From the IMG/VR virus record IMGVR_UViG_3300022666_000296, positions 634 through 64,633 of that record: a stretch of DNA of 64,000 nt; one strand, 5' to 3'. The DNA is from a virus (taxonomy: Duplodnaviria; Caudoviricetes). This document shows, piece after piece, positions 3,290 to 62,064 of this stretch (its first letter is position 1; the number at the start of each line of letters is the position of its first letter). Position numbers and translations under genes: made by a program. The notes beneath the pieces were generated by a model. The model worked only from the letters and a program-made list of their open reading frames with translations, did not search any database and had not been told where the DNA came from.

Positions 3290-3318
3290 CCTTCTGCTAA
3301 TAAAGGATTATCAGCACT
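3290..3318. repeat. dif-like palindromic site S1 CCTTCTGCTAA-TAAAGGA-TTATCAGCACT
   Basis: Member of the genome-wide site family; left flank of attP. Confidence 0.8.
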
Positions 3319-3417
3319 ATAATAATTGCAGATTGCATGGTTGCCTGAAAACTACTTCAACACCAGTGCTCAAGGATATGCCAGAAAAGCGACCATATGC
3401 ACCGCCGGAAAAACACA

Positions 3418-3461
3418 GTTCGGGTCCGTGAGGTCCAGGGTTCAAATCCCTGCGCCCCGAC
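3418..3461 (+). mobile_element. attP core: 3' half of tRNA-Pro(CGG)
   Basis: GTTCGGGTCCGTGAGGTCCAGGGTTCAAATCCCTGCGCCCCGAC contains the anticodon loop TTCGGGT, T-arm GGTTCAAATCC and acceptor 3' strand CGCCCCG; no 5' half or D-arm upstream; beside the integrase. Confidence 0.85.
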
Positions 3462-3710
3462 TGAGTGCTCACGGAAGGCACGTTTTGTCACTCCATGAGC
3501 ACCCCAGTTGGCTCTCCCGTCAACTGTAGATAGCATGGTACAGTAGGTCTCATGGATAACCTAACTGCCATTCCATGAGTACCGCGGTAGGGATCCACCC
3601 CTACTGAGACTGGCGTCGCTATCGTTTTCCGGCTTCAAAAAAAACGTCGCAATTAGTTATCAGCACTATCCGCAACATTAGCGGAACAAGACGTTAGAAC
3701 CGGAGATGAC

Positions 3711-4706
3711 ATGGCACGCAAGAAGAATTCTACCCAGTTACGTTTGTCCCAGGCCATAGATGGCTTCTTTCTCGAGCTTCACGCGCGGCGACTCAGCCCT
3801 CACACCATCAGCGACTACCAAAACACCTGCAACAAACTGACCGCATGGCTGCGCGATGATCCCTACATGCACGAAATCGAAGCCGCTACCATTCAGAAGT
3901 TCCTGGCATACCTTGGCAACACCCCACAACAACCCAACACCCCCATCCAACGCCAGGCCAAACCGCTATCCAAGAAATCCGTGCTCAACATCCACACGGG
4001 CCTCTCCGCGCTGTGGACATGGGCATTGCGCGAGGGCATCATCCACGACCACATCATACGCGGCATTCCCCGCCCCAGGCCCGAGAAGCGCGTTATCATC
4101 CCCTTTACCCGCGATGAAGTCGCCGGCATGCTCGACGCTTGCTCTGCGACCAAAGGCTATTTCCAGAAACGCACCTGGTGCGCCAACTCGCGCCCGACCG
4201 AGCTCCGGGACCAGGCCATCATTCGCACCCTCACCGACACTGGCCTACGCGCCTCCGAGCTGTGCGACCTCAAAATCGGGGATTTCGACATGCCCAACCA
4301 CCGGCTCAAAGTCTTCGGCAAAGGCTCTAAAGAGCGCGTGCTGGCGCTGGGGGATCGTACTACCAAAGCGATCTGGCTCTACCTGACCAAAAGCCGGCCC
4401 GCCAACATCAACGCAGACGAGCCGCTTTTCGCCACAGATGATGGCGTCGAGCACCTGACTCGTCGCGCTCTCGGCCTGCTCCTGGAGCGCATCGGCGAAC
4501 GCGCTGGAGTGCCCAACGTTCACCCCCATCGCTTCCGACATACATTCGCGATCACCTACCTCAGAAACGATGGCGACGTCTACAGCCTGCAGATGATGCT
4601 CGGTCACAGCACTCTGGACATGGTCAGACGCTACCTCGCCATCGCCCAGACCGATGTCGAAAAAGCCCATCGTAGAGCCTCGCCCATAGACAACTGGAAA
4701 CTCTGA
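3711..4706 (+). CDS. int: Tyrosine integrase (attP-associated)
   Basis: TGLRASE, K (VFGKGSK), HRFRH, LGHS...MVRRY catalytic motifs; follows the tRNA-derived att core. Confidence 0.95.
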   Translation: MARKKNSTQLRLSQAIDGFFLELHARRLSPHTISDYQNTCNKLTAWLRDDPYMHEIEAATIQKFLAYLGNTPQQPNTPIQRQAKPLSKKSVLNIHTGLSALWTWALREGIIHDHIIRGIPRPRPEKRVIIPFTRDEVAGMLDACSATKGYFQKRTWCANSRPTELRDQAIIRTLTDTGLRASELCDLKIGDFDMPNHRLKVFGKGSKERVLALGDRTTKAIWLYLTKSRPANINADEPLFATDDGVEHLTRRALGLLLERIGERAGVPNVHPHRFRHTFAITYLRNDGDVYSLQMMLGHSTLDMVRRYLAIAQTDVEKAHRRASPIDNWKL

Positions 4707-4724
4707 ATGGTTAAGCAAAAGAAA

Positions 4725-4766
4725 CTCCCTATCGAAGAAACCGTCGACGGTTTCTTCGATAGGGAG
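4725..4766. terminator. Perfect 42-bp palindrome between convergent genes (terminator or cruciform site)
   Basis: CTCCCTATCGAAGAAACCGTC|GACGGTTTCTTCGATAGGGAG; A-rich run on the left gives a U-tract on the minus strand. Confidence 0.6.
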
Positions 4767-4963
4767 CGTAATTGCATTACTTTGGATACAATCACTCCAG
4801 AGTAGCACAGTCTCAGTCTTTTGCTGCCCGTTCCGGGTTCAGCGCCAATAATCGCTCCAGAGTTTGCTTTTCTGTTCTTGAAGTTCAGAATTTCATCTTC
4901 GCGCTGCTAGATCTAGAAGCAGAGTCCCTCTGAGTGAAATGGTGGAGCTCATTGCATTGGAAT

Positions 4964-5389
4964 CTAGCCTTCAGGGTCCAGAATTTGTACCACCCTATCA
5001 CCCTTTTTGACATAACTCTCTTCTTCGGGGAGCGGTGGTGGGAGAGTAGAATCAGTTGTTCGTAAGGTCTCTGGCACACTCTGCACGGGCGCCATGAGAG
5101 CTGCAATAGAAGGCAAAACACCTACAGTACGTAGTCTATAGGTTTTACATATAGAATATCTTGGCTCTAGCTTCGATACTGTTACTCTCACTTTTTCGCG
5201 GTCCAAAAGACCAAGAAGATCCCCGGTCTCTGGGTCATGTATCTCCATTGGCGAATAGGATAATATCTTGAACTTCATATTCTGCTTTACGCCCGCTTCT
5301 GCACCGATATTTATTATCAGTTCTCTCTCATTCAGAACCATAACAACTTTACCTTGAAGTGGTTCCTGAGTCTCTATGTCTTCACTCAT
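4964..5389 (-). CDS. Hypothetical protein, FlgT C-terminal-like beta domain
   Basis: LIINIGAEAGVKQNMKFKI...IHDPETGDLLG pattern; low-GC cargo. Confidence 0.55.
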   Translation of the reverse strand: MSEDIETQEPLQGKVVMVLNERELIINIGAEAGVKQNMKFKILSYSPMEIHDPETGDLLGLLDREKVRVTVSKLEPRYSICKTYRLRTVGVLPSIAALMAPVQSVPETLRTTDSTLPPPLPEEESYVKKGDRVVQILDPEG

Positions 5390-9904: not shown

Positions 9905-9933
9905 AGTTCCGCTAATCTATTCTTAGCAGTACC
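9905..9933. repeat. dif-like site S2 AGTTCCGCTAA-TCTATTC-TTAGCAGTACC
   Basis: Between the stop of 9937-11547 and the terminator. Confidence 0.85.
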
Positions 9934-11547: not shown

Positions 11548-11557
11548 ATGTCACCCC

Positions 11558-11995
11558 TTACATCACCCAGACCAAAGGTCCGTAACCGAAAACCGCCTGC
11601 GGCGGTGTCTCTGTTACATGTCCATCCCACACAAATTCTACATAGCCCAATAACTCCGCTATCGAGGGTATGTCCGGAGTTTGTGCCGCTGGAGCATTAC
11701 CAGTGTATTCCACATAGCCCAGAACCTCAGCCACGTTTCTGCGCAGAAGTCCGGGCTCAGAGATGTACTCAACGTAACCTAGAGCATCGGCCACATTGCG
11801 TCTCTGATCGCCCGGCTCGCTGATGTATTCCACATACGCCATTAGCTCAGATAGCGAAGGTATATCTGGTGTTGCGGCACTAGGAGCGTTACCGACATAC
11901 TCAACGTAGCCAAGTATCTCGGCTACGGCCTTATTGGCCGAGTCAAGTACATACTCGATATACCCTAGAATCTCGGCTATGTTGTGCCAACTCAT
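11558..11995 (-). CDS. Tail-associated protein made of six xAExLGYVEY repeats
   Basis: Six copies of the repeat visible in the translation; coupled to the upstream tail gene. Confidence 0.7.
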   Translation of the reverse strand: MSWHNIAEILGYIEYVLDSANKAVAEILGYVEYVGNAPSAATPDIPSLSELMAYVEYISEPGDQRRNVADALGYVEYISEPGLLRRNVAEVLGYVEYTGNAPAAQTPDIPSIAELLGYVEFVWDGHVTETPPQAVFGYGPLVWVM

Positions 11996-13062
11996 GAGGA
12001 TACGCCTATCTCCAAGGTGGCTAAATCAGCTTCTTCCCAAGCTGCATTATCGGCAGGATTCACAGCCCAGGCATATTCAAAGTTCTTCCAGTTAGTCGTC
12101 AGCGTTTGATCGGAGCTAATACTATTTGTACCATTGCTGCGTACCATTGGTGCAATTACACCGGCACCGGATTCAACCCGTGCCCTGGCTGTAACCACAA
12201 TATTCGTAATCACAGCTCCTACCGGAAGATCAGGAACTTCAGCTGCGGCTGTTACCAGCTGATCAGCGCTGGCAGTCTGTAGCTGATGCACACCAAAACC
12301 ACCACCAGTCATTTGTGCAGCATCATCGCCTAAATCTAGCCCGGCACGACTCCATTGTGCATACTCTCCTTCTGAGCGCCCACGAATGGGCAGCAGACGC
12401 ACCATCCCGGGCCAGCTGTTGTTGCTGGCACCAGAAGCGTCGTTGCACACAATATCATCAAATAACGTTGGCCTTACAGCAATCGAGGTAACTGTAACTC
12501 CAGAGAAATCAAACGCATTGATGAATTCCTCTTCTTGAGTAGTGTCTCCGCTATATGTCGCCACCTCAACACCATCGACCTTAACCGTAGTAATACCACC
12601 AGAGTTGCGTGGCTTGTGATAGAACTCAATGTAATGCCAGGTATTAGCAGCTATTACACCAGCAGCAGACTGGGCTAAAAGAGTACTGTTGTACCTGACA
12701 ATGCTAATTCGACCATCTGCGGTTAATGAAAGGCTTACAAAGTTAGTATAAACTCCGGGATCATCATTTCTGGAATAGAAAAATGGACTCGCGGACAAGC
12801 TTGGAACATTGATTGCAAATCCCCAATACAGTTCAGTATACGTGGTAACGCTACCAAAATCTTTACGAAGAATCTGGTTTTCGTCCAAGGCATACATACC
12901 TCTTCCAGTGCGTGGAGTGTGCGTGCCATGCAAGCCATCGCTAACCGCCCCCTGTAATAATACAGAAGCTTGTCCCTGTGATGCCGTTAGCGTGTTATCA
13001 ATGTAATCCCAAGCGGCACGCGGTTCAGCACCCTCTGCGCCATCAGTTAAAATTCTGACCAT
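11992..13062 (-). CDS. Tail/receptor-binding protein with ConA-like (LamG) beta-sandwich
   Basis: NTWHYIEFY...TTVKVDGVEV...LFDDIV pattern; AGGAG RBS before ATG 13062. Confidence 0.6.
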   Translation of the reverse strand: MVRILTDGAEGAEPRAAWDYIDNTLTASQGQASVLLQGAVSDGLHGTHTPRTGRGMYALDENQILRKDFGSVTTYTELYWGFAINVPSLSASPFFYSRNDDPGVYTNFVSLSLTADGRISIVRYNSTLLAQSAAGVIAANTWHYIEFYHKPRNSGGITTVKVDGVEVATYSGDTTQEEEFINAFDFSGVTVTSIAVRPTLFDDIVCNDASGASNNSWPGMVRLLPIRGRSEGEYAQWSRAGLDLGDDAAQMTGGGFGVHQLQTASADQLVTAAAEVPDLPVGAVITNIVVTARARVESGAGVIAPMVRSNGTNSISSDQTLTTNWKNFEYAWAVNPADNAAWEEADLATLEIGVSS

Positions 13063-13072
13063 TGTATCGCTC

Positions 13073-16000
13073 CTAACTATGAATGATATGGACCACCAGA
13101 TCTGACCCGGCGACAGTCGAGCCGATCTGGTCAATGTGGACCGTCAGGTATGAACCTGCCGTCCAGGTAGCCACGTCGATGCTCGTGGTCTCGCCCGTGG
13201 CATTCCCCGCCGTGACCGCAGGACGGTTGCCCTGGTCGGTGAAGATCGTGGTGCCATCCTGATGCACATCCACGATCACACTCGCGCCAGTCGGCGCGGT
13301 TCCCACCGCCAGGAACACTTTGCTGATAGTCTGTGCCACCCCAAACTGATTGTAGATGCGGAGCGGATTGTCGGTGACCGTCAGGACGCCGGCAAACGTC
13401 AGCACCGTTTGCCGCACCACGGCTGGCAGATCATAGAACCCCACATTTCCGGAGCCATCTGTACCGTAGTATTTCGAGTTTCCGGCTGCAGCTGCGCCCT
13501 CTACCGCTGCTGCCTCATCCACGACCCCGTCATCATCCACGTCATAGGTCGCCTTAGTCATATCGCCTACGGGCAACGTCAGAGCATCAAGTGTCTCCAA
13601 TGCCGCCTGTACGGTGCTGTCGGCTGCGCTCAATAGCCCATCGAAATTGGTCGTATCCGCTGCGATCGCGCTGGCCGGATGGGAGCTTGCAGCGTCGCGG
13701 TTGGTCAGATTCGTGTGGCTTGCCGGCGTGTAGGAACTGCCTGGACCTGTGGACACCTCGCGGAAGTCCATGGCCTCCACGTAGGTGGCGCTGCCGCCGC
13801 TGCGCTGGTAGATCACGCGATAGAGCAGTTTCCACTCTTTCGTCACCTGTCCCGGCGTTGCTGGCAAGGAATCGTTGCGGGCTGCCGCAACCGTGGTGTA
13901 CTGCGCCTGCCCGACCACGATGTAAATCGGATAGTCCACATCGTTCGTGCAGTACACATACGCACAGAAGTACCGGTTGGCATCCACATCCGTGAGCGTG
14001 CCCGCGTTATCGTACTGCGGCGCTGGCGTTCCTCCGAGTTTCCACGGGCAGGTGATACCGCTCTCGAAGCGCATCGCCGTCGCCCCACTGTTGCGATACC
14101 ACAACCGGCACGCGGTCAGCGTGCCCCCAGTATCTTCCAGCAAGTCCTCATCGTAGATCGAGCCTTGGGCAATACTGAACGTCGTGTTGCCAAATGTCCC
14201 CGCCAGCCCTGACCCGTAGCGAGCCCCAATCGTCACATGCGCCCAGGCGTGCCAGGCGCGATTCCGGCGGTAACCATGTCGTTCGTCCAGAATCGCATAC
14301 GTCGCGCCATCCTTGTACACAATCGCCGTCAGCACATTGGCCGAGTAGATGTCCCACAGTGTCGTTGCCGCCTGCAACACCCCATCGCTATCGAAGTACA
14401 CGTAGTGCTGCGTCAGGTCGTTAGTGATCTCGATGCTTTCTGCGGCATCCTTGACCATGCGTTTCCCGTCACTGTAGATAACATACTCGTCTACCGCCGG
14501 CGCGATCTCGAAGTAGTTGCCATCCATGCCGATGACACTATCCTCGCGATTCACATAACCATTGCTCGAATTTGCAGCGCGCCAGGCCACATCCGTGCCA
14601 TCGCTGCCTGCGAACTCTCCTGCGGCACCCAGCTCCAACCGGGTCCAGGCAGGCGTCTCCCCCTGTGCAGTTAGCATATCCCCACGCGCGACCGGAGCCG
14701 GCATTTCCTCCGGCACATCGTGAAAGCCCGGGGTTCCACTGCCATCCGTCCCGTAATACTTGCTGTTCCCCGCTGCGGTGATGCCTTCGACAGCTGCTGC
14801 TTCATCTACGACCCCATCATCATCGGTATCGTAGCTTGCTTTCAACATATCCCCGGCTCCGGCTGCCGTTGGGACCCACTTGCCGGCATCAGCATCCCAC
14901 GCCAACACTTCACCAGCGCCAGGAGTATCTGCATCTACATCGGTCAGCTCATCCAACGCCAGCGCCAGGTCACTGGCTCCCAACGCCCTGAACGTCGGCG
15001 TTGCTGCCACACCGCTTGCAGGTCCCGCATAGACCGTGTTGGCTGCTTGCGCATCCACCCCGAGCTGCTGCCCGCTGAGACTGAGCAGCGTGTCTGCCGC
15101 CGTGCTCAACGTCACCGCGGCGTGATGGGGGCTACCATCCCCAAGCGCCGTGTGTTCACCCGGCGTCAACACCTCCGCCAGCGTGAGCACCTGCCCGGAG
15201 AGTGTCAACTCCGCCGCGCTGCCAGCCCCCAGGGTCACTGGGTCGTGGTCCTCTCCGGTCGTCCCACCTCCAGTTCCACCACTGGCGCTCCTTGCAGTAC
15301 TCTCTACCGCCTCCTGTTCCTGCTTGCGCCGCTTCTCCATCGCCGCCAGCAGTACTTCCAAACGGCTATCCGCGCCACGCGGGCGCAATACCACCTTCCT
15401 CGCATCTACCTGCACTTCCTGCACTTGGATAGTAATCTGTCGGTCCGGCACCAGGTCATGCAAGACCACCACATCCCCGGCGCGCACCAGCGCTGCAGGC
15501 CAACGACTGCCATCAGGCTTGGCAATCACTGAGGTAGAGCTCAGGCGGATACCCGGCTGCGGCTCCGCATTTTCTGCTAGATAGATTTGCGTCAACGTCA
15601 GCGCCTCGGCTTGTGAGGTCTGTGGCAGACGGATGGTTTTTTCCCGTCGCCCATATAACGCAATGCTATCGTCATCCGTCAACCAGGCTGTGCGCCAACC
15701 GTCAGGCATCTCCCCGCGCACCGCATTCCACACATCCTGTCGTCGCCAGCTCAGCGCCCAACTATCCAGGTGCTGCCGTTCCAGACACCAGTCGGCGTCA
15801 TCCGACCACGGGCGAAATTCTGCCACCCCGTCATAGATTGTGAACAACCAGGTGGCGCTACCGTCACCCAACCCGGTCAGTTCCTCAAGCGCCTCCAGAT
15901 ACGTCGCCTGTTGGTAGACAGCGCGATCTACCAGCACGCCGCCAGAAACGACCTCCTGCTGCGTGATCCCGGCAGCCGTGAGCAATGCAGCAGCGATCGT

Positions 16001-16714: not shown

Positions 16715-16743
16715 AGTGCTGCTAACAACCCCTTAACGGCAGT
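16715..16743. repeat. dif-like site S3 AGTGCTGCTAA-CAACCCC-TTAACGGCAGT
   Basis: Fills almost the whole 32-nt gap between two tail genes. Confidence 0.85.
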
Positions 16744-20880: not shown

Positions 20881-20909
20881 ACTTCTGCTAATAAACACTT
20901 AACGGTACT
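20881..20909. repeat. dif-like site S4 ACTTCTGCTAA-TAAACAC-TTAACGGTACT
   Basis: Intergenic, between tail tube and chaperone genes. Confidence 0.85.
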
Positions 20910-21536: not shown

Positions 21537-21548
21537 CTGAAAACCTCC

Positions 21549-24245
21549 TTACTCAAAAATAGGCGCACAACAATCTATCACGGCTACGTACAACTGGAGC
21601 AAATTGACAATCACATATCGATCGTCAACGACCAACACATGACAGAAACCGTAACTGCTTCTATCCGGAAAATCATTCAACTGCAATTCCTCGATGATGC
21701 TGTACGTTCCGCGCTTGATCAACAACAAGCGCTGAGAGCCGGCATCTGCCGTCAGCACCAGGAGGTAGTCGCCGACCACCCACACATCATAGATGGTATC
21801 AAGGACTGTTCCGGGCAGAAGATAGCTATACAGCAGCACTGGATCGGTGCGGTCACTCACATTGAAGAGCTGCACCCGAGCCTCACCATCAACCTCACCC
21901 AGGGCTAATACATCCTCACTCAAGTGGCCCCCGCATTGGTAGTTAGTGCCGCCGAAAATCTGGTCTGAGAAATAAGCCAACACAGGGCTTGCCGGTAAAC
22001 TCATATCGAAGACGGCGAAACTCCACGAATCGTCCACGACGTACAAATAGCGCTCACCGTCATAGACCAGGTACTCGCAGTCGTGCAGGGCGTCGTAGTA
22101 GAGGTAGGTGGGATTTTCTGGATCACTGATGTCGAAAACCGCCATTCCAAAACCGCTGCCGCCACCATAGACATGCTGCCCGTCCGCGCTGAGAATAATC
22201 TGCTGCAGGAATGGCGCCCCATTCCAGGGTTCGGCTATGTACTCACACGCGCCCAGTTGTATCAACGTGCTCTTGTCCAGGATGAACAAGCCGCGCTCTG
22301 TACCAACGTAGACATAATCGTCATCTACAGCACATGCAAACGGCTCATTGCTCATCCCTACATAGCTACTCTCGATAGAAACCCAACTCGCACCCGTCAA
22401 ACTGCCGGTGAAAACGCCCTCACTGTTGCGATACGGAATCTTGAATACTTTCGCCGTGCCGGTCGAAACGTCATAATATGTCTGAAAGATGTGCGTGTCA
22501 TCCGCAGCAATACCATACAGCAACCGCTGTGTGCCTTCCGGCAAGGTATCCTCTGCCAAAGTATCATACGTCGCTATGACCTCCAGCGCGGGTGTTCCGT
22601 CAGGATCAAATAGGCACGAACTGTAATCACTATCCCCTGCGTGCACAACCAGTAACCCGTCATCAACCGTCCCGTACTCGCATTCCAATGCCACCCGCTT
22701 ATCTCGCGCCCATACCAACTGCGGCTCTCCCGCTAACACGCCATGCTCGAACCAATAATAACCTGGCAACATTCCGTAGGGTGAGAGTGCTTCGCCGCGT
22801 AACAGCAACGCACAGCCCGCCGGCGCAAAGCCACGCTCCAAAGGTAACCGCTTCGTCGGCGCGATTTCTGCCCCCGGCGCCACATTTGCCACCTCGTGCA
22901 GCACCCGTGCGTAGGTTTCCAGCGTCAGGCCCACCAAAGAGAAATTGACCGTCAACTGCTCTTCCGGGCGCACGGCCTTACGCGGTCCCTGGTGCTCGTT
23001 GTCCCACCAGTATTGCAGCGCTCCGCCGTGTGTGATGATTTGCTCACCATCCGTAGCGCCCAAATAAACCCATGGCGCGACTGGCGTCTCGGTGACCGCA
23101 GGCAAAGCAGTGCCAACCGGCGCCACGTAGATATCCAGCGTGCCCACAAGTAAATCAAAACCTTGACCACTCACGCTGGGCGTCGGTGGCTCTGGAGACT
23201 CAAACACCTCATAGTAGGCGAAGAGTCCATAGTAACCATTGTCAGGCGAGTACAACATGAACCATCCGCGCGCGGAAGCAGTGAAAGCGAAGTCGTAGAC
23301 CTCATAGGCGCCGGTATCTATGGCGTCTCCACCGCTCCACTCTCCGCCGTCGCGCTCGCTGTAACGCACGAACGACATGCTCGTGACGGGGTTGGGACCA
23401 TAGTCAGCACCGATCACGTGCAGTTGCCCGGCTCCAGAACAGGCCGCGCGAATGTAACTTTGGAAATTGTTGTATGCCATGGTAGTGGTGACGGCAGCCC
23501 ACGCGCCAGACTCATCATGCAGATGGTGTAAGCGATCCTCAGAATAATCCACATAGAGCACGTGCAGCTTGCCTGCGGCGTCGATAAGCAGCTCCACCCC
23601 GGCAGTATCGCCGGCGCAGTTTTCAACTAACGCTGTGCCAGCCCAGACCCCACCAACACGTGCATATAGCACCAGGTCATTTGCATCTGTCGTTAAGACA
23701 TAGGGTGTGTCGGTAGCATCCATACGCAACCTGAACATGGGCAATTGCGCGGTAAAACTCACACTATCTGCCAGAATCGTCTCCGTAGTCCACGCGCCAG
23801 TGCTGCCATACGTATATTTAATTGTCCTGGTATAGGGCACTCCCGTGCGCGTTGCCCACACAATGTGCAACAGGCCTGTGCTATCGAGCGCCAGATATGG
23901 AAATTCGACCATGATAGCCGTACCACTGACCAGTGTTTCCTCAACCCAACTGCCGCTGCTATTCGTGACATACAGCAGGTAATACGTGTAGTTGGGGTAG
24001 ATGCCCGTGCGGTAAATTGTCACGATGTGCACCAATCCCGCATGTATGCCAATCGCAGACCCGAAAAGCGATCCGGTCGTCTTGTGCAGCGCCACTTCAT
24101 GCTGCCAACTTGCGCCATCCCAACTCACGTAAACTAAGTCGCGCGTTTCACACACCACAAAGTGTGGATAGCCATCAGCATCCACACAGCCGTTACCGCG
24201 ATCATAGTATTCGCCATCGGCGATTAGCACTTCAGTCGTGATCAT
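21549..24245 (-). CDS. Tail-tube paralogue fused to N-terminal beta-propeller and C-terminal LVIVD-like propeller
   Basis: Central ~165 aa align with the adjacent tube protein (shared DNEHQGPRKAVRPEE, RGEALSPYG); LAVFDISDPENP-type repeats at the C-terminus. Confidence 0.75.
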   Translation of the reverse strand: MITTEVLIADGEYYDRGNGCVDADGYPHFVVCETRDLVYVSWDGASWQHEVALHKTTGSLFGSAIGIHAGLVHIVTIYRTGIYPNYTYYLLYVTNSSGSWVEETLVSGTAIMVEFPYLALDSTGLLHIVWATRTGVPYTRTIKYTYGSTGAWTTETILADSVSFTAQLPMFRLRMDATDTPYVLTTDANDLVLYARVGGVWAGTALVENCAGDTAGVELLIDAAGKLHVLYVDYSEDRLHHLHDESGAWAAVTTTMAYNNFQSYIRAACSGAGQLHVIGADYGPNPVTSMSFVRYSERDGGEWSGGDAIDTGAYEVYDFAFTASARGWFMLYSPDNGYYGLFAYYEVFESPEPPTPSVSGQGFDLLVGTLDIYVAPVGTALPAVTETPVAPWVYLGATDGEQIITHGGALQYWWDNEHQGPRKAVRPEEQLTVNFSLVGLTLETYARVLHEVANVAPGAEIAPTKRLPLERGFAPAGCALLLRGEALSPYGMLPGYYWFEHGVLAGEPQLVWARDKRVALECEYGTVDDGLLVVHAGDSDYSSCLFDPDGTPALEVIATYDTLAEDTLPEGTQRLLYGIAADDTHIFQTYYDVSTGTAKVFKIPYRNSEGVFTGSLTGASWVSIESSYVGMSNEPFACAVDDDYVYVGTERGLFILDKSTLIQLGACEYIAEPWNGAPFLQQIILSADGQHVYGGGSGFGMAVFDISDPENPTYLYYDALHDCEYLVYDGERYLYVVDDSWSFAVFDMSLPASPVLAYFSDQIFGGTNYQCGGHLSEDVLALGEVDGEARVQLFNVSDRTDPVLLYSYLLPGTVLDTIYDVWVVGDYLLVLTADAGSQRLLLIKRGTYSIIEELQLNDFPDRSSYGFCHVLVVDDRYVIVNLLQLYVAVIDCCAPIFE

Positions 24246-24676
24246 GCGCTGTCACCTGCGACCGCCGTCTCTGCTACTGCCAGCTCACCATATACCAACA
24301 CCATCACCACCTCTGGCACATCCGGTTCCTGCAAAAAACTCGGTCCGGAGGTCAGATTGACCCAGTACACCAACCCGTTGCCAGCTGACGTCTCCACCAC
24401 CTTCCGCTGCGCCTGTCGGCAAACACCTACCAACGCCCGGTACACAGCACCGGCTTCGGCAAACGTATTGCCATAGCAACGAAACTCTATCCGCGGGCGC
24501 TGCCATTCCAGGTACAATTCCGCATCACCGCCGTCATACTGCACCTGCAGTGCCTGACAAGGAATCGCCCAGCCGTCACCAAACTTGTGTCGTGGCGCTA
24601 CTCGCCCGGCAATGACCTTGTTCAGATCTGCATCGCGATAGAGCAGTTCGATCAACGCTTCGAGGGCATCAATCAT
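24242..24676 (-). CDS. Tail terminator/completion protein (DUF3168-like)
   Basis: RPRIEFRCYGNTFAEAGAVYRAL; position just before the tube genes. Confidence 0.7.
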   Translation of the reverse strand: MIDALEALIELLYRDADLNKVIAGRVAPRHKFGDGWAIPCQALQVQYDGGDAELYLEWQRPRIEFRCYGNTFAEAGAVYRALVGVCRQAQRKVVETSAGNGLVYWVNLTSGPSFLQEPDVPEVVMVLVYGELAVAETAVAGDSA

Positions 24677-26993: not shown

Positions 26994-27022
26994 AGTACCG
27001 CTAAGGTTTTCTTAGCAGCACC
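26994..27022. repeat. dif-like site S5 AGTACCGCTAA-GGTTTTC-TTAGCAGCACC
   Basis: Intergenic, at the head/neck boundary. Confidence 0.85.
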
Positions 27023-34072: not shown

Positions 34073-34081
34073 GACTTCCTC

Positions 34082-37442: not shown

Positions 37443-37471
37443 AGTTCTGCTAACGCTTTCTTAGCAGCGCT
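37443..37471. repeat. dif-like site S9 AGTTCTGCTAA-CGCTTTC-TTAGCAGCGCT
   Basis: Between TerL and portal; inner 7-bp arms are perfectly symmetric. Confidence 0.9.
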
Positions 37472-39781: not shown

Positions 39782-40066
39782 CTAGGCATCTTCATCATGC
39801 GGTCGCGCGTCATCGCTACGCGAAGAAACGCCATCTATTAGTCGATACCCATTGACGACTTTTTGACTGCGGGGATCGTAAACCCCCTTGCGTACTGTCA
39901 TCTGGTTCTTCTTCACCATTTCCAGCAACCTCTGTGCAGCCAACTGATGGCTGCACCCAAACCGAGCCGCATAATCTGCCGCTGTGATCTCATCCTGAGC
40001 CAACATTGGTCGCTCGCTGAACTGCTCCAACTCCGCCAAGATCTGCCGTCGTATGTCATCCATCAC
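39782..40066 (-). CDS. Small winged-HTH-like protein
   Basis: ITAADYAARFGCSHQLAAQRLLEMV. Confidence 0.6.
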   Translation of the reverse strand: MMDDIRRQILAELEQFSERPMLAQDEITAADYAARFGCSHQLAAQRLLEMVKKNQMTVRKGVYDPRSQKVVNGYRLIDGVSSRSDDARPHDEDA

Positions 40067-40923
40067 AACCGTTCCTTGGTCCGCAAATCAACCTGCTCCA
40101 CGAGTGGAATGTAATCCACCAACTTGCCATCTTCGACCACTAACACGATCAAACCGTTCGACAGCCGCAGTTTTGAACCGGTCGCCTTGCGACCATGCTC
40201 ACCCATGCCACACCAGCTAGGCAACAACACAATGTCAGCCTCATACTCTACTTTCCCCTTCACCCGCACCGTCTCACGCACATACTCATGAAAGTGTGCA
40301 CGGAATACAAAACGCGGTGGGACTTTGCCATGCACGATCTCTTCTAGCATCAGACTTTTCAAATAGTACCGCAGCTGGTTGCCCTCTGTCCACATACGAA
40401 TACCGCTGGATGGACCATGGTGCGCATAATCAACTAGGAAACCGTCAATATCCACAAGCCCATGTTGCATTACCTTGAAGTCAATGGCTGGAAACTCCGC
40501 CTCCAACTGCGCCTTGACCAACACCGGTGCAGAACCTTCTTTGAATACATGCACCCCCGTGCCGCTGGCGAAACGCATGACCTGCACCCCTGGTAGGCTG
40601 ACCAACGGGCGCAAATTGGCCGCGGCGATGAGCAACTGCCCGGCGAGTTGGGTTGTCACCAGCTGCTCGTGGAACGCATTCCCTTGAGTGACATCACCAT
40701 CGAAATAAATCTGAATCGGCGCTCCCGCAGCAATCCGCGCAATCTCTTCGAGATACAACTGGTAAAGTACCCACAGATATTCCTGTGTTGCAGTTAATTT
40801 AGGCGAATAGGACACAATCTCGCCCGTGCTCTGATCCTCATCCTGGAGAACCGTTGTCGGATTCAGTAGCCCCAGTACATGGCCGCTGTGCATATCCGAC
40901 AAAAATACCAGAACCTTCCGCAT
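40063..40923 (-). CDS. Calcineurin-like metallophosphoesterase
   Basis: LSDMHSG, GDVTQG, GTGVH, HHG, AHFH motifs. Confidence 0.8.
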   Translation of the reverse strand: MRKVLVFLSDMHSGHVLGLLNPTTVLQDEDQSTGEIVSYSPKLTATQEYLWVLYQLYLEEIARIAAGAPIQIYFDGDVTQGNAFHEQLVTTQLAGQLLIAAANLRPLVSLPGVQVMRFASGTGVHVFKEGSAPVLVKAQLEAEFPAIDFKVMQHGLVDIDGFLVDYAHHGPSSGIRMWTEGNQLRYYLKSLMLEEIVHGKVPPRFVFRAHFHEYVRETVRVKGKVEYEADIVLLPSWCGMGEHGRKATGSKLRLSNGLIVLVVEDGKLVDYIPLVEQVDLRTKERL

Positions 40924-40938
40924 AATCCTTAGCAACTC

Positions 40939-40966
40939 CGTGCTGCTAAGAAACGGTAGCAGCACC
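40939..40966. repeat. Site S10 CGTGCTGCTAA-GAAACG-GTAGCAGCACC (6-bp spacer)
   Basis: Intergenic; invariant CTGCTAA arm present. Confidence 0.6.
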
Positions 40967-44931: not shown

Positions 44932-44963
44932 AAAACGCCCAGATAGCAAGAGCTATCTGGGCG
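44932..44963 (-). terminator. Terminator upstream of the lysis/late operon
   Basis: 12-bp stem CGCCCAGATAGC/GCTATCTGGGCG followed by TTTTG on the minus strand. Confidence 0.75.
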
Positions 44964-45155
44964 CTGATTACGCTAACCCTCAGGGGTCACTATCGAGTAA
45001 CCCTGGGGTGGCCTTCCACCACCACGACCGTGTAGGGAGATTACGGCTTGTGATCCCGATGTAACCTTATCCCAGGTCTTTCACATCTGCCGCTATCGGA
45101 ACCACTGTCACCACTCTGCTCGAATTTTCTTCGCAGAAAGAAAATCAATATGGGA

Positions 45156-45329
45156 TCAATCGTCGCAAATCGTTACCGATTTACGCACTCTGTCGCCAGC
45201 GAAGTTGAGTTCGATGCGGCCTTTCGTAGCAGCCTCAATAATCCGTTGCGCCTCTAGCAAGCGTCGGATCATCGCGGCTAACCGCGCCGAAATCTCCAAT
45301 CGGTTCCCCCCATCCTCAATAATAACCAT
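45156..45329 (-). CDS. 57-aa protein (MVIIEDGGNRL...), DUF2292-like, not in the ORF track
   Basis: GAGGTG RBS; GRIELNFAGDRV C-terminal hairpin. Confidence 0.55.
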   Translation of the reverse strand: MVIIEDGGNRLEISARLAAMIRRLLEAQRIIEAATKGRIELNFAGDRVRKSVTICDD

Positions 45330-45380
45330 CGGTACACCTCATCAGTGTCACGATTATCATACACTATCAACATCGCAATT

Positions 45381-45758
45381 TCAAGCCACCAGGTTAAACA
45401 ACGGCAACTGCGCCGCGTCAGTTTGCACTACCGTGATTCCCAGTTCATGCGCTGCGGCCAGCGCCAGCGCTGTCACCAATGTCCCAGACCACCCATCATC
45501 TGGATTGCGTTCCATGCGCAAAACTACGTGCGGAGCTTCCTCTTGCATGTCAGCGAGACACGCGAACATAAAGTCCCACACCTGCGCAGCCGACTCCTCC
45601 GCAGTTTTGCCAAGCGTACAACGATGGGCTGCCCCATATCCTTCACTATCATCTGCATACGTGTAGATCGGGCGTAACACTACCTCACCGCTCTGGTAAC
45701 GATCAGCGAGAATCTCTACGTTAATCACAGACTGCCTGCGGCGCTTTATTTGTGCCAT
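45381..45758 (-). CDS. Hypothetical protein
   Basis: AGGAGG RBS before ATG 45758. Confidence 0.6.
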   Translation of the reverse strand: MAQIKRRRQSVINVEILADRYQSGEVVLRPIYTYADDSEGYGAAHRCTLGKTAEESAAQVWDFMFACLADMQEEAPHVVLRMERNPDDGWSGTLVTALALAAAHELGITVVQTDAAQLPLFNLVA

Positions 45759-45803: not shown

Positions 45804-46994
45804 CTATGAGTGGATCACGAGCCACTTCCAGATTCCCGCATCCATGGCTTCCAAACTCGCCAGCCTGATCTCACCTTGTGGTAACCGGCTCCAGCGCACC
45901 GCCTGACGCAAAATCTCAGCCTGTTTCTCACACATCTGCATGTTGACTGTGATCAAACACATCCGTGGCACCAGGCTGAGGCTTTTCGCCCACTTCTCAT
46001 CGTTACGGCGATCGATCTCCAGTTGCACTTCAACCGGCCAGAAGACGCCGTTTTCCATAGCCACCAGGTCCGGCTCTGTGCGTTGCCCCCAACGCTCATC
46101 ATCGCGCACTAGAAGCGGGTCAGGCGCATCGTTGACAACATACCCGACAGCCCGAAGATGGTCGCGTGCTTCGAGGATCGCTACCGCGTGCGCGACACTT
46201 TTGTGTTTCTGTACCGGCACATCCAGCTCACACGGCACTGCCGTCACCTTAAATGCCATCTCCGCCCATGTTCGCCCGCGCTCTGTAAGGCGCAACAGTT
46301 GCCGCCCCCCACCTGCTCGTGGTGTCCATTGCTGCGGTTTCCCATTCCAGACAAAATCTGCCAACAGCTCTGTGTCCTTGAGCCGTTTCAGCGCATTGCG
46401 CACACCGTTGTCATGTTCTGTTAATCCCATCGCCGTGATCCTGGAAATCACATGCCAGCTGCGCGCCAGACCCGTGACAGCGATCAGGCGCAAAATCTCC
46501 TTGTCGAGCTTCGATCGTACTGTCACCGTCTGCGCAGGGATAGTCACACTCGCGGGCGCTGCTGCCAGAGCGCGCTCCCGCCAGGCTGCGACTTCAGCCT
46601 GCGTCGTGGCGAGCTGCTGTTCCATCGTCCCAACCTGTGCCCGAAGCGCCTGCACCTCACCTGCCAATCGCTCATTCTCTGTGCGCAACCGTCGCCCACC
46701 CTCCTTACGTTCCAGTGCCCGCGCAGTATCTTCAAGCACTTCCAGACACAGCCCCCACTCAAAAAACATGCGCTCGATAACTTTGAGCAGCGTCGGTATT
46801 GCGTACGGGCGCACAGATGGCTTGACCAAACGATGCAAACTTGCGATCGCCTGATCCCGCCAGGCCTGTGCTTCCCTGGTCTCTGGAGGATCGTACTCCA
46901 GCGTATATCCCCGCCATCGAAAATGCAGCGCATTCACCCGGCGCACTAGCGATTCAATGTCCCGTGTCTTGAGTTGTAGTTGTGTTGCGTCCAT
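45804..46994 (-). CDS. Coiled-coil + winged-HTH + PD-(D/E)xK-like protein (Replic_Relax-like)
   Basis: LKRLKDTELL...LRLTERG wing; EPDLVA...VEVQ nuclease-like motif. Confidence 0.55.
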   Translation of the reverse strand: MDATQLQLKTRDIESLVRRVNALHFRWRGYTLEYDPPETREAQAWRDQAIASLHRLVKPSVRPYAIPTLLKVIERMFFEWGLCLEVLEDTARALERKEGGRRLRTENERLAGEVQALRAQVGTMEQQLATTQAEVAAWRERALAAAPASVTIPAQTVTVRSKLDKEILRLIAVTGLARSWHVISRITAMGLTEHDNGVRNALKRLKDTELLADFVWNGKPQQWTPRAGGGRQLLRLTERGRTWAEMAFKVTAVPCELDVPVQKHKSVAHAVAILEARDHLRAVGYVVNDAPDPLLVRDDERWGQRTEPDLVAMENGVFWPVEVQLEIDRRNDEKWAKSLSLVPRMCLITVNMQMCEKQAEILRQAVRWSRLPQGEIRLASLEAMDAGIWKWLVIHS

Positions 46995-47064
46995 GCTATA
47001 ATTCTCCATATCCGAGGGAGGTAATCCTGACTTCACTGCAGCCATTACCGCAGACAAACCATGT

Positions 47065-51441: not shown

Positions 51442-51470
51442 AGTTCCGTTAAGTCTTTCTTAGCAGTACT
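51442..51470. repeat. dif-like site S12 AGTTCCGTTAA-GTCTTTC-TTAGCAGTACT
   Basis: Overlaps the TAA stop of 51460-52143. Confidence 0.85.
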
Positions 51471-55782: not shown

Positions 55783-55810
55783 ACTCCGGCTAATCCTGAT
55801 TAGCAGCTTG
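55783..55810. repeat. Site S13 ACTCCGGCTAA-TCCTGA-TTAGCAGCTTG (6-bp spacer)
   Basis: Junction immediately upstream of the primase. Confidence 0.6.
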
Positions 55811-58246: not shown

Positions 58247-58275
58247 AGTTCTGCTAAGAAATAGTTATCAGCACT
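58247..58275. repeat. dif-like site S14 AGTTCTGCTAA-GAAATAG-TTATCAGCACT
   Basis: Intergenic; right arm shares 16 bp with 3654-3669 near int. Confidence 0.85.
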
Positions 58276-60536: not shown

Positions 60537-61216
60537 GCCCACCCGGGCGTTTTCTTTACAGTCACACTCTCAATTTCCTCTGCACACCAATACCAGTGCG
60601 ACGGTATCTCCTCCGAGGTCCCCACGTGCACCTTCTCGATGCGCACCACGTGCGGAATCCAAATCGAGTCGCCTTCCACCGTGAGAAAATGCTCATCACC
60701 GCTGCCGGCATATCGCACTTCGTAGAACATCTTCTCATCTTCGCCAAACCAAACCTTGTAAAACGTGAATGGCTTGAATGCGGCTGCCTGCAGCGCGTCC
60801 CTTCTCTTCCGCCACTGCTCATTCACCTGTGCCCGCGCTAGCCAGCGCGCCACATGCTCGCGTCCCTCCTCAGGGTATTGCGGGCATTTCCACAAATAGC
60901 CTTCACTAGGCCGCAAATGCACCCGCGTGACCTCGCCACCCTCAAAACTGAATCCACTGAGCGCCACGCAAAACGTTTCACCGAACGCATGCAGATACAC
61001 ACAGAAGCCATTCTCGCCAACGTCATCCACGAATTCAGCCTCCAGCGCCGTCAACTCTGCCGCACTCAAAGCTAAGAACTGCGCCACGGCCTTTAGCGCT
61101 CGGGGCTGTGCCGCAGCGCGCAGTTGCTCCAGCTGCGCAGCTTCAGTCGCGCGCGCATAGGACTCATCCGCCAAAATCCGTTTTCCCACCTCTAGCAATT
61201 CCCTCAACGCCACCAT
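60533..61216 (-). CDS. Hypothetical protein
   Basis: GAGGAGG RBS before ATG 61216. Confidence 0.6.
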   Translation of the reverse strand: MVALRELLEVGKRILADESYARATEAAQLEQLRAAAQPRALKAVAQFLALSAAELTALEAEFVDDVGENGFCVYLHAFGETFCVALSGFSFEGGEVTRVHLRPSEGYLWKCPQYPEEGREHVARWLARAQVNEQWRKRRDALQAAAFKPFTFYKVWFGEDEKMFYEVRYAGSGDEHFLTVEGDSIWIPHVVRIEKVHVGTSEEIPSHWYWCAEEIESVTVKKTPGWA

Positions 61217-61331
61217 CGCTGACCTCCTCACTTGAAATTCACTTTTAACCATGCTATCATTACAGATAGGACACCCTCAACATCATTGTCCTGGCCCCCG
61301 GCCCGGCGAACCCCACCCGCCGGGCCCTTGT

Positions 61332-61553
61332 TTACCAACTCAACAGCCGCTTCACCCATGCCTCATCCGTCAACGGAAGGCGCGGTTTGCTTGATTCTGA
61401 TTGCTGCTTTTTCCGCGGCTTCACCACAATCCGCAACTCAGTCGGAGCTTCCCCTTTGCACTTTGAGCAGATCGCCGGTGCACTAGCGTTCTCCACGTTG
61501 ACCACCCCTACCACCTGTCGACACACTGGGCAAACCCACGCCGTGACTGCCAT
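61332..61553 (-). CDS. Small Zn-ribbon protein
   Basis: WVCPVC...CSKC. Confidence 0.6.
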   Translation of the reverse strand: MAVTAWVCPVCRQVVGVVNVENASAPAICSKCKGEAPTELRIVVKPRKKQQSESSKPRLPLTDEAWVKRLLSW

Positions 61554-61563
61554 GTTTCCCTCA

Positions 61564-61749
61564 TCACCCGTGCAGCACTGCGCGTGCGTGTTCCAGCCGC
61601 GCTGGATCATTCGGTTTCTCCACCAACATCGCTAGCGCATGCATCAGGTCGTCCTGACGCCCCAACCCCAATGCACACCCCAGAATCACACCGCCTAACA
61701 GCGCTGCCGCGCTTACCAGTGCCATCACCACAATGCTAACCATTGCCAT
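61564..61749 (-). CDS. Small single-TM protein
   Basis: AGGAGG RBS; hydrophobic N-terminus. Confidence 0.55.
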   Translation of the reverse strand: MAMVSIVVMALVSAAALLGGVILGCALGLGRQDDLMHALAMLVEKPNDPARLEHARAVLHG

Positions 61750-62032
61750 TCCTCCTGTTGTACTGTCGAACATACTCAGGATGTTGCATCCGTCGCAGTG
61801 CCCGTGTGATGATCGCATGGGCGCGTCCATCACTGACCTTCCATAGCGCCGCGCACTCGTGCAAGGTGCGTCGTACCTGCCCGCCGGGCGTGTACCGCGC
61901 CCGCAGCACCTCCGCGATCTGCCGTTCGGCCCGCCCCCGGCCAGCGGCAGACGCACATGCCCAGAACACATTTAGATCGCATGGGCTCGACAAACCAAGA
62001 TCAATATCCAGTGGTGATAAAGACATGCTCAT
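61736..62032 (-). CDS. Stand-alone sigma70 region-4-like HTH protein
   Basis: LRARY...RTLHECAALWKVSDGRAHAIITRALRRMQHP resembles the RpoD C-terminal RTLEEV...KALRKLRHP. Confidence 0.65.
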   Translation of the reverse strand: MSMSLSPLDIDLGLSSPCDLNVFWACASAAGRGRAERQIAEVLRARYTPGGQVRRTLHECAALWKVSDGRAHAIITRALRRMQHPEYVRQYNRRNGNG

Positions 62033-62035
62033 GCT

Positions 62036-62064
62036 TCCTCCGCTAACAAACGCTTAGCAGCACT
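62036..62064. repeat. dif-like site S15 TCCTCCGCTAA-CAAACGC-TTAGCAGCACT
   Basis: Overlaps the stop codon of the second tyrosine recombinase. Confidence 0.85.

Follow-up and report, generated by a model that had tools for sequence, protein, structure and literature searches.

The window, by which we mean the whole 64,000-nt stretch of DNA analysed here, comes from a temperate phage with a Chloroflexota host. An earlier note had proposed that dif/lox-like palindromes at its gene junctions form a module-shuffling system. The sites (listed without a strand) and the genes and attachment features that bear on them are as follows, with bits taken from a half-site weight matrix scored on the window:

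3290-3318: site S1, CTGCTAA-TAAAGGA-TTATCAG, 29.3 bits, with the attP core about 95 bp to its right
3414-3462, plus strand: attP core, coinciding with the 3' portion of a tRNA gene; homology to the lysogen junction stops at 3414
3657-3688, plus strand: two direct half-sites, TTATCAGCACT and TTAGCGGAACA, spaced 21 bp from each other in the stretch from the attP core to int
3711-4706, plus strand: integrase (331 aa), a second candidate binder of the sites
9905-9933: dif-like site, 33.7 bits, after which comes a minus-strand intrinsic terminator (9886-9873)
16715-16743: dif-like site, 31.7 bits, immediately ahead of a 1213-aa gene
20881-20909: dif-like site, 33.1 bits, past the major tail gene, with a step in strain divergence beginning 6-11 nt away
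26994-27022: dif-like site, 33.8 bits; in each of the two strain sets a divergence step coincides exactly with its edge
30142-30170: dif-like site, 35.8 bits, overlapping the TAG stop of a peptidase gene
35133-35160: weak site, 13.8 bits, conserved in relatives
37443-37471: dif-like site, 33.6 bits, at the terminase/portal junction; both arms exact
40939-40966: dif-like site with a 6-bp centre, 23.3 bits
44891-44919: dif-like site, 31.0 bits, flanked by a strong terminator (44965-44934) and the first late gene
51442-51470: dif-like site, 35.8 bits, ahead of a C5 methylase gene; the arm TAA is the upstream gene's stop
55783-55810: weak 6-bp-centre copy, CGGCTAA-TCCTGA-TTAGCAG, 11.3 bits, ahead of the primase gene; conserved in relatives
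58247-58275: dif-like site with a CTGATAA arm variant, 35.0 bits
59205-60542, minus strand: FtsK/SpoIIIE-like ATPase, a putative activator or motor (Pfam FtsK_SpoIIIE 5.2e-35, plus FtsK_alpha)
62036-62064: dif-like site, 26.8 bits, sharing bases with the TAG that ends the Xer-like recombinase gene
62063-63322, minus strand: second tyrosine recombinase, Xer-like, 419 aa, gene 4 of the early leftward operon (Pfam Phage_integrase 1.3e-24)

Dispersed dif-like sites are confirmed as genuine in this phage. The pattern CTGCTAA-N7-TTANCNG, counted with at most one mismatch, occurred at 11 places (19 strand matches), compared with 0.16 expected from shuffles, and in the half-site matrix the 11 strong 29-bp sites scored 26.8-35.8 bits and site 40939 scored 23.3, with everything else at 15.8 or below, placing the eleven clear sites of the earlier note far above chance. 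Of the four degenerate copies it had listed, 40939 held up, and 35133 and 55783 are weak yet kept in relatives; 28841 falls below the matrix list, is not credible as a site and is not counted. At this position the centre is a regular 7 bp long in the close relative L026/L028, and site 40939 of the window has therefore lost one base.

The window sites have an 11-7-11 anatomy with TAA/TTA adjoining the centre. As had been described, one arm is invariant (CTGCTAA exact in 11/11 strong sites) and the other variable (in 10), arm mismatches are uncompensated, all centres differ, and the XerC arm of E. coli dif matches GGTGCTGCTAA at 8/11 positions by inspection. Of the two ends of each 7-bp centre, one and only one is NAA (12/12; 9% expected per site), and it is found on either strand. 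The 12 sites are evenly spaced on the 64,506-bp circle, with gaps of 3.1-7.3 kb (CV 0.27; P ~1e-5 against random positions and also against random gene junctions). The reported placement at gene junctions was borne out: all strong sites are intergenic in a minus-strand operon and lie 0-29 nt ahead of the next SD or start, except 9905 (107 nt), with the site's first two bases overlapped by the TAG of the upstream gene in four cases and the arm TAA used as a stop in one.

The motif is phage-specific. It is not spread through the host MAG (4.8 Mb), where 9 of 11 matches lay on phage contigs and duplicated sites of the window, and the half-site occurred there 12 times (8 on phage contigs), compared with 34 for the control. 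The immunity operators, GTTGGC-N4-GCCAAC at positions 55, 93 and 144, lie apart from the 29-bp sites and co-vary with the repressor allele, whereas a heteroimmune strain has the 29-bp sites unchanged. We therefore rejected the 29-bp sites as operators of the immunity repressor, and the stoperator-like alternative raised earlier is disfavoured.

At least six relatives besides the window phage carry arrays, with 4 to 17 sites each (window 12-14, G005 17, G012 13, G013 14, G014 13, L083 7-9 and L076 at least 4), spread evenly around the genome in all five whole contigs tested. Evenly spaced arrays of the same site family, defined by the arm core C-Y-G-A/C-T-A-A and a 6- or 7-bp centre, were found in four more phages, and shorter runs at two further loci. 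These four further phages have the early gene backbone in common but not the head genes, and head and packaging modules are unrelated among array phages; the arrays travel with the early module rather than the packaging module. Sister phages have an 11-6-11 form, CCGATAA-N6-TTATCGG. In G014, the invariant arm CGGGACTGATAA lies on the plus strand at 13/13 sites, the variable arm has CGGCACGCATAA as the consensus of its reverse complement, and the arms are unlike at three fixed positions, as in dif, with all sites pointing one way. Within their own genomes, 69/69 centres are distinct.

The nearest solved relatives of the 62063-63322 recombinase are XerA, XerD and XerD-FtsK-gamma; its candidate catalytic R, K, H, R, H and Y positions are invariant across 16 homologues, and the enzyme looks catalytically intact. 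A recombinase was found wherever a contig includes the early region, and synteny links it to the FtsK-like gene, which follows it in the window, G005, G014, L076, L080 and L083. Homologues in other viral contigs (30-41% identity) are accompanied by a dif/lox-like dyad at the stop codon or close to it; the dyad overlaps or directly trails that codon in L081, L085, L079 and L076, and in L080, L087, L094 and L077/78 it lies within ~1 kb of the homologue. Together with the arrays in related phages, these dyads support the proposed link between sites and recombinase, a link that rests on association. The integrase is common to all five array phages (46-48% identity) and could itself be a binder or partner; no Int homologue lies close to the sites of L076, L079 and L081.

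From the sites and their statistics, phage specificity and dif-like anatomy, and from their cross-phage association with this recombinase family and the FtsK-like gene, we infer how they may be bound and cleaved, what the centres do and what purpose they serve. We give about an even chance to the reading that they are heterospecific dif-like core sites of a phage Xer/FtsK-type module, each recombining only with its own counterpart on another copy of the genome. They would be Xer/dif-type core sites acting as double-stranded DNA, with ~11-bp inverted arms and a 6-7-bp centre, most likely bound by the phage's own Xer-like recombinase, with which the FtsK-like ATPase encoded slightly downstream probably partners. 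The dyads beside recombinase homologues, the related arrays and the unlike G014 arms support the tyrosine-recombinase core-site format recognised in the earlier note. Because every centre differs, exchange would be limited to the same site, and strand exchange would be completed only with that site on a second copy, be it a sister replicon, dimer partner, co-infecting relative or resident prophage; neighbouring sites would be incompatible, and the genome would therefore neither delete nor invert itself. The array would then act as a grid of allelic crossover points, one per 3-7 kb, whose immediate uses may be to resolve or unlink multimers and to rejoin or reassort genome copies, with mosaic exchange between strains as a consequence. 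The data suggest such a built-in grid, which has not been described for phages before. However, multimer resolution does not predict even spacing, strain-level conservation of the centres exceeds what sister-copy function alone would need, and the 6-bp and 7-bp centres do not sort by branch of the recombinase tree, both lengths occurring within one genome. The sense strand also shows a slight bias, with G at the first position of the centre, purines at the degenerate position of the arm and the more stable folds in 10/12 sites, which points to a degree of strand-specific constraint that may be no more than the overlapping stop codons and SD.

The proposal of programmed shuffling, in which the array would serve swaps of whole modules between related phages through equivalent sites with matching centres, stands only in part and now seems unlikely. 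Strain divergence steps occur at 62-70% of sites, compared with 33-39% of other junctions and ~25% of random positions, and several lie exactly at sites (37443, 26994 and 20881 in the MAG strain; 26994, 20881 and 30142 in the IMG/VR strain), one of them inside 37443. Site 30142 is also one boundary of a segment replaced in L031, a genome that has a site at the 26994 junction too and keeps the 44891 arrangement of terminator, site and first late gene; even spacing would moreover suit a reassortment grid. Nevertheless, sites exceed other junctions by a modest margin (Mann-Whitney p 0.034 and 0.087), the largest steps fall at non-site junctions, and most indel or replacement boundaries lie off-site (21537/24267, 11548/15316, 38-598 and 4766/6071). 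The expected conservation of centres at each position holds among strains with ~10% flank difference (0 substitutions compared with ~7.8 expected, summed from identities) but is lost at 72-84% portal identity, where centres differ in sequence and even length; L031 and L009 lack sites 37443 and 30142. Because centres differ or change length and sites are missing, equivalent-site compatibility is lost beyond close strains, and the 3/69 centres in common between genomes are never at homologous junctions. Ordinary homologous crossovers, furthermore, would be drawn by conserved 29-bp islands regardless. We see very little chance that the array is a circularisation grid, in which headful packaging would leave every terminal redundancy with one site in duplicate, through which the recombinase would circularise incoming DNA. 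Cre-loxP can close incoming P1 DNA, and a grid of this kind predicts the even spacing and small maximum gap that are seen; the recombinase is encoded in the first early operon, and no Erf/RecT-type gene was recognised. Yet the equally regular array of G005 coexists with a terminase of the lambda gpA family, which is known from cos phages, and the travel of arrays with the early module also argues against packaging-related closure.

We hold it rather improbable that the sites bind a dimeric phage protein other than a recombinase, such as a global regulator, transcription roadblock, genome organiser or replication initiator. Dispersed dyads with uncompensated arm variation would fit such a protein, as would the half-sites ahead of int, a central asymmetry independent of transcription direction, as in Cluster O (PMC4351075), and even spacing, which would suit an organising or priming role. 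A replication protein in particular may be the binder, judging from sites in or beside primase genes: primase is common to all array phages, a near-perfect site lies within the primase gene of G005, G012 and G014, and L080, L085 and L077/78 have a single site directly upstream of a primase-like gene as well. However, the arrays of L076 and L083 have no primase homologue within 10 kb, the repressor has its own operators, and the sites show no promoter-like signal and too little space before the SD for one. Helix-turn-helix dimers do not usually have 11-bp arms centred 18 bp apart, a geometry typical of recombinase core sites, and the dif kinship (ATAA-N6-TTAT, CGCATAA) and the linkage to Xer-like genes point the same way. 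RNA or single-stranded DNA hairpins, serving as processing or stabilising stem-loops in polycistronic transcripts or as lagging-strand priming signals, are very unlikely. All sites do lie in transcribed gaps of one long operon directly before an SD, 10/12 window sites and 11/13 G014 sites fold more stably on the sense strand, and U-G exceeds C-A by 6:2 at arm position 6 in the window. Against hairpins, there are no compensatory double changes, 5/12 of the window stems have a central mismatch and some fold at only -2 to -5 kcal/mol, and sites of L031, L009 and L057 have sense-strand C-A mismatches. The fixed arm differences of G014, the NAA end on either strand and the lack of a T-run after the stems argue likewise, and across phages with recombinases ~35% identical it is the site sequence that is kept rather than the structure.

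Among known systems, Xer/dif (XerCD-dif-FtsK and the single-recombinase XerS/difSL, XerH/difH and XerA/dif) resembles the preferred core-site reading in its 28-29-bp core, 11-bp arms, 6-8-bp centre, inner arm ends of the ATAA/TTAT type, one conserved and one variable arm (as in G014 and the window), sequence proximity of XerA/XerD to the phage recombinase and an FtsK-family ATPase, here encoded alongside. The XerS recombinase gene is linked to its own site, as in the phage here (PMC2731167). Unlike Xer/dif, the phages carry 12-17 evenly spaced sites per 50-65-kb replicon rather than one, each with its own centre; the enzymes are phage-encoded, most window arms are CTAA/TTAG rather than ATAA/TTAT, and an FtsK gamma domain was not detected. 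The Acinetobacter plasmids pDETAB5 and pDETAB2 have 14 and 16 pdif sites (PMC9455709). These too are many Xer-type sites per replicon between gene blocks, GR13 plasmids also have a tyrosine recombinase gene, and exchange or cointegration at pdif sites has been proposed or shown. In contrast, pdif sites are shown around modules in both C/D and D/C orientations and are ascribed to host XerC/XerD, whereas G014 sites run in one direction and phage spacing is regular across essential genes; identical modules in different contexts were not found for the phage sites.

Cluster A mycobacteriophage stoperators likewise recur at gene junctions in the long operons of a temperate phage, but each is an asymmetric 13-mer that follows the direction of transcription and is a target of the immunity repressor (summarised in PMC4351075); here the repressor has separate operators, the 29-bp sites surviving an immunity swap. 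Cluster O mycobacteriophages have genome-wide 17-bp dyad repeats, many intergenic, predicted to bind a dimeric protein and with a central TTT/AAA asymmetry unrelated to transcription direction (PMC4351075). Those repeats, in phages that have no integrase, are 7-3-7, exceed 30 copies, lie within genes in one third of cases and have no role in rearrangements, unlike the 11-7-11, dif-like, evenly spaced sites here with their link to an Xer-like gene. In T4-type phages, modular shuffling takes place at PeSL cassettes, which are short, conserved and intergenic (PMC2839356); they combine promoter and terminator and act via homologous recombination between copies, whereas the phage sites lack promoter and terminator features and their centres all differ.

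Also comparable are heterospecific lox/FRT sites and the Cre-loxP system of P1, with a phage-encoded simple tyrosine recombinase and a site adjoining its gene. Sites of the lox/FRT type with different centres recombine only with an identical partner. P1 has one loxP, with 13-bp arms and an 8-bp centre compared with 11 bp and 6-7 bp here; what is new relative to Cre-loxP is a natural array of 12-17 mutually incompatible sites.

The motif reported in the earlier note on this DNA proved to be real, with 19 strand matches in the window against 0.16 expected, and its eleven clear sites were confirmed at 27-36 bits in a scan with a half-site weight matrix. Together with the copy at 40939 (23 bits) they stood apart from the rest of the window, which scored 16 bits or less. 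The four degenerate copies that had also been listed fared unequally: 40939 was retained, those at 35133 and 55783 are weak matches yet conserved in relatives, and the copy at 28841 found no support.

Arms of the form AGTNCYGCTAA occur at 12 places in the window, and homologous arms are present in four other phage contigs (G005, G012, G013 and G014). As in the core sites of tyrosine recombinases, arms of about 11 bp in inverted orientation enclose a centre of 6-8 bp. Eleven window sites have a 7-bp centre, whereas 40939, 55783 and 35133 have one of 6 bp, the first of these being one base shorter than in a close relative; elsewhere the centre measures 6 bp in G005, G012 and G013, and 7 bp in G014 and a further locus, L083. 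In the 7-bp centres exactly one end reads NAA (12/12), on the plus strand in 7 cases and on the minus strand in 5, and this orientation alternates in 8 of the 11 neighbouring window pairs (our own count; p about 0.11). The sites take up the space from one stop codon to the following Shine-Dalgarno (SD) sequence, and several stops are formed by the site itself. They are also evenly spaced, with gaps of 3.1-7.3 kb and a coefficient of variation of 0.27 (P about 1e-5, whether compared with random positions or with random junctions), a feature that, to our knowledge, is shared by no described phage repeat family.

Of a virus record of 64,633 bp, the window omits only 633 bases. The ends overlap by 127 bp and thus define a circular molecule of 64,506 bp. 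The phage is temperate and tailed. All genes from 63.7 kb down to 4.9 kb form a single minus-strand block, and the principal features of both strands are as follows:

183-521, plus strand: Xre-type repressor
Short plus-strand block with the repressor and integrase: Mrr-like nuclease
3711-4706, plus strand: integrase
62063-63322, minus strand: second tyrosine recombinase
Minus strand, same block: FtsK-like ATPase, ParA, DnaG/DUF927 primase-helicase, C5 methylase
Minus strand, structural and packaging genes: terminase, portal, protease, capsid and tail genes
Minus strand, further genes: ECF sigma factor, MmeI-like enzyme

Pieces of the same phage occur in a Chloroflexota metagenome bin (MAG). 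On one of its contigs (C417; L074:5261) the match to the window stops at 3414, inside a tRNA-like segment (3400-3462), from which we infer that the phage integrates there and that the MAG is a plausible host. The attP core corresponds to the 3' part of the tRNA gene. About 9.5 kb further into C417 lies an FtsK-like gene with 66% DNA identity to that of the window, suggesting a second related element nearby. Another MAG contig (C151; L057) carries a second, distantly related phage with homologues of 39782-40965 at 44-59% identity and one CTGCTAA-N7-TTAGCGG site, which has a stop codon on one side and an SD on the other. Searches of phage records by DNA or by an 836-aa protein gave no match, and searches of viral contigs with the recombinase and a small HTH protein returned no close relatives.

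Three GTTGGC-N4-GCCAAC operators (at 55, 93 and 144) lie between divergent promoters ahead of the repressor gene; within this immunity switch (40-182) the operators overlap promoter-like hexamers at 56-85 on the plus strand and 107-78 on the minus strand, and the first leftward gene, which spans the record start, has a ribbon-helix-helix (Cro-like) look. In the strain of the phage found in the MAG, the immunity region is swapped (L075:1522-2160 versus window 38-598) between flanks that are 97-99% identical. Its repressor is about 45% identical by our own estimate and is preceded by different dyads, of the GTTAC-N6-GTAAC type; the two phages are a heteroimmune pair in one population. Elsewhere, a terminator with a 14-bp stem (44965-44934) lies immediately ahead of the late genes, about 400 nt beyond a minus-strand promoter-like match (45384-45356; 10/12). 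The late operon seems to start in this order, with promoter-like match, terminator and then site 44891, and a related locus, L031, is alike. By analogy, the resemblance of the layout at 44934-45384 to lambda pR'-tR' suggests that the late operon may be under antitermination control.

These regulatory landmarks bear on what the sites could be. The earlier note had offered repressor stoperators as an alternative, which we reject: the immunity operators lie elsewhere and differ in the heteroimmune MAG strain while its 29-bp sites are identical, and stoperators are asymmetric and transcription-oriented, the sites being dyads with the NAA end on either strand. Repeats of the host (REP-like, Chi-like or a host regulon) do not fit either, since the motif is not abundant in the 4.8-Mb, incomplete MAG: of 11 full-site matches there, 9 lie on phage contigs and duplicate sites of the window itself, and the remaining two comprise one on a related phage contig and a one-mismatch match inside coding sequence, so that the motif appears phage-specific. 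AGCGG, the B. subtilis Chi sequence, is contained in TTAGCGG; Chi-like protection was discarded because the half-site is not enriched in the incomplete MAG (12 occurrences, 8 of them on phage contigs, versus 34 for a reversed control). Resemblances to CtrA-like, LexA-like and KorA/KorB-like boxes were set aside, the motif being absent from the host MAG. A reading as ECF-sigma or sigma-70 promoters founders on a right-arm GGAAC that lacks a -10 partner, on the want of room before the SD and on a scan without enrichment, and attC/integron sites on a GTTRRRY resemblance that is weak and confined to a few arms. Intrinsic terminators were rejected in that no T-runs follow the stems and no site gave a convincing scan match; only two minimal terminator-like matches overlap sites (58247 and 40939), and true terminators adjoin sites 9905 and 44891. 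That the sites act as RNA or single-strand hairpins, for instance in RNA processing or stabilisation, is unlikely. The stems often carry central mismatches, predicted folds span -2.0 to -16.4 kcal/mol, C-A mismatches are found on the sense strand in relatives, the arms of G014 differ at fixed positions and no pair co-varies. A mild sense-strand bias remains, for which overlap with stop codons and SD sequences may account. Arm differences are never compensated, in keeping with the earlier argument from mismatches for a DNA site over an RNA stem.

Which protein serves the sites is suggested by their neighbourhood. The second recombinase of the window contains a Phage_integrase domain, and its nearest solved structures are XerA, XerD and an XerD-FtsK-gamma fusion. 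Candidate R, K, H, R, H and Y positions are invariant in its homologues; judged by sequence, it is Xer-like and keeps the catalytic-type residues of its family. We examined viral contigs encoding recombinase homologues at 26-41% identity, the closest homologues (P0002-P0006) being left out, and in many of them found a dif/lox-like dyad that lies at the end of the gene or close to it. In L081 the dyad GTTGTGATAA-TGCTTA-TTATCACAAC overlaps the recombinase stop, in L085, L079 and L076 it lies directly 3' of the stop, and in L080, L087, L094 and L077/78 it lies within about 1 kb of the gene. Four of these linked dyads are exact TGATAA-N6-TTATCA, against about 0.004 expected per locus by our own estimate, and the site in L094, ACTGATAA-N6-TTATCAGC, comes close to CTGATAA, the variant arm seen at 3290 and 58247 in the window. 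This pattern favours the tie between sites and the 62063-63322 recombinase that the earlier note had raised, and from gene-site linkage we propose the latter as the candidate cognate enzyme. A PHROGs search with 29 proteins gave as its sole DNA-binding candidate a weak 'transcriptional regulator' match (45804-47057; 417 aa). Contigs with several CCGATAA-N6-TTATCGG matches (L142, L157 and others) encode recombinases that are only weak matches or unrelated.

A strict search for recurrent exact dyads around the recombinase homologues found none, and arrays were detected only once a degenerate arm model was used. G005, the whole 59-kb contig behind L094, then showed 17 sites; G012, G013 and G014, found via the primase common to the window and G005, have arrays of 13-14 sites each, and L083 and L076 have arrays too. 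Spacing was regular in all five whole contigs (P from <2e-5 to 2e-4), and all 69 of 69 centres were distinct within their own genome. The array phages share Int and the primase and have unrelated capsid, portal and terminase genes. Wherever the early region is present, an Xer-like recombinase is followed by an FtsK-like gene; the G012 and G013 contigs end just before the expected recombinase position, and its absence there carries no information. Genome-wide regular spacing, dif-like two-arm anatomy and linked Xer-like and FtsK-like genes are particular to this clade. The sites of G014 have one invariant arm, found on the plus strand in 13 of 13, and one variable arm, which includes the CGCATAA that forms the inner part of the E. 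coli dif XerC arm. Centre length gave no signal of co-evolving with the recombinase, the 3 changes being no better than shuffled labels.

The centres GAATGAA and GAAAGAC are identical between window sites 44891 and 51442 and G014 sites 20662 and 31187, and two more window/G014 centres match at 6/7, with flanking genes that are not homologous; that these centres are shared by chance is unlikely (roughly 0.01, our own estimate). G005 (11735), G012 (971) and G014 (26500) each have a further dyad within the primase-helicase gene, 0.9-1.0 kb from the start of that gene. In these in-primase dyads (loci L099, L229 and L236) the centre is 7 bp long and the arms are exact or nearly so; each may be an origin or master site. 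In L077 and L078, a similar 12-7-12 site lies just upstream of a primase-like gene.

What a phage would gain from so many sites can be approached through known uses of such recombination. Multimer resolution needs one site, not twelve. Cre-loxP closes the terminally redundant DNA of P1, and circularisation of this kind at the array sites would predict their even spacing, but the lambda gpA-type terminase of G005 makes this reading less likely. With resolution satisfied by one site and circularisation weakened, we settle on a general mechanism, judged about as likely as not, in which heterospecific dif-like sites would let two genome copies recombine allelically, the reaction being carried out by an Xer/FtsK-type module of the phage. 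On this proposal, which in its full form we regard as speculative and rather improbable, a clade of temperate phages would possess a genome-wide, even grid of mutually incompatible dif-like sites, together with an Xer-like recombinase and an FtsK-like motor to serve it. Crossing over between any pair of genome copies (sisters, co-infecting kin or a resident prophage) could then take place at a dozen fixed, allele-specific points. Such a site-specific system would stand in for general recombination, and would repair, resolve and reassort phage genomes in 3-7-kb blocks without risk of self-deletion. The selected benefit may be resolution or unlinking, repair or reassortment, or module exchange.

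If true, the proposal would provide a natural counterpart of engineered heterospecific lox/FRT sets and a phage counterpart of plasmid dif modules, and would mean that a virus can carry and multiply Xer/FtsK-type machinery. It would also give a mechanistic basis for modular phage evolution, a long-standing question that goes back to the modular theory of Susskind and Botstein. Whichever protein binds, even spacing found independently in five genomes with unrelated head genes needs explaining. The arrays are easy to detect and could define exchangeable blocks in uncultivated phages, and the sites could serve as orthogonal recombination sites.

Module exchange, as claimed in the earlier note, was examined in close strains of the window phage (the MAG strain and three IMG/VR contigs), which are mosaics of stretches with 100% and about 90% identity. 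Flank divergence was asymmetric at 62-70% of sites; the figure was 33-39% for other junctions and about 25% for random positions, with sites above other junctions at p 0.034 and 0.087. A step-size test with 250-nt windows placed sites above random positions (p 0.049 and 0.019) and not above other junctions (p 0.15 and 0.11). The claim is only partly borne out: divergence steps are enriched at sites and several strain boundaries fall exactly at one, but the largest steps and most indels lie elsewhere. The expected conservation of centres by position is likewise limited to close strains, among which the sites, centres included, are conserved islands; in more distant relatives, the centre at the same junction differs in sequence or length, or the site is missing. 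One replaced segment has an edge at site 30142, other indels lack bounding sites, and complete relatives are few. These results agree with crossing over at sites between closely related strains, whether by a site-specific enzyme or by ordinary recombination at conserved islands.

Several larger differences between the strains can be placed on the map. Between the protease and capsid genes, 30169-34408 is swapped for 2.2 kb of unrelated DNA in L031; the window block, which encodes an ECF sigma factor (31287-31748), an MA-type peptidase, small proteins and one of 508 aa, also turns up, but lacking site 30142, in an otherwise unrelated contig, L009. An 898-aa tail-tube paralogue (21537-24267) is absent from L001 and L031, a deletion without a bounding site, and the MAG strain lacks 3.8 kb (11548-15316) covering part of a 1213-aa gene and two neighbours, again without a bounding site.

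A text search of the literature found no description of phage-wide dif-like arrays. The nearest published cases are pdif modules (PMC9455709), Cluster O dyad repeats (PMC4351075) and PeSLs (PMC2839356). Like pdif/dif modules, the arrays have gene blocks bounded by Xer-type sites, several to a replicon; unlike them, they do not show opposed C/D and D/C orientations, as the uniformly oriented invariant arm of G014 illustrates. Three short proviral contigs (L126, L143 and L167) each carry two GCCGATAA-N6-TTATCGGC sites 7-9 kb apart, identical to each other in L167, and look like Xer-exploiting elements bounded by dif-like sites, unrelated to the window phage.
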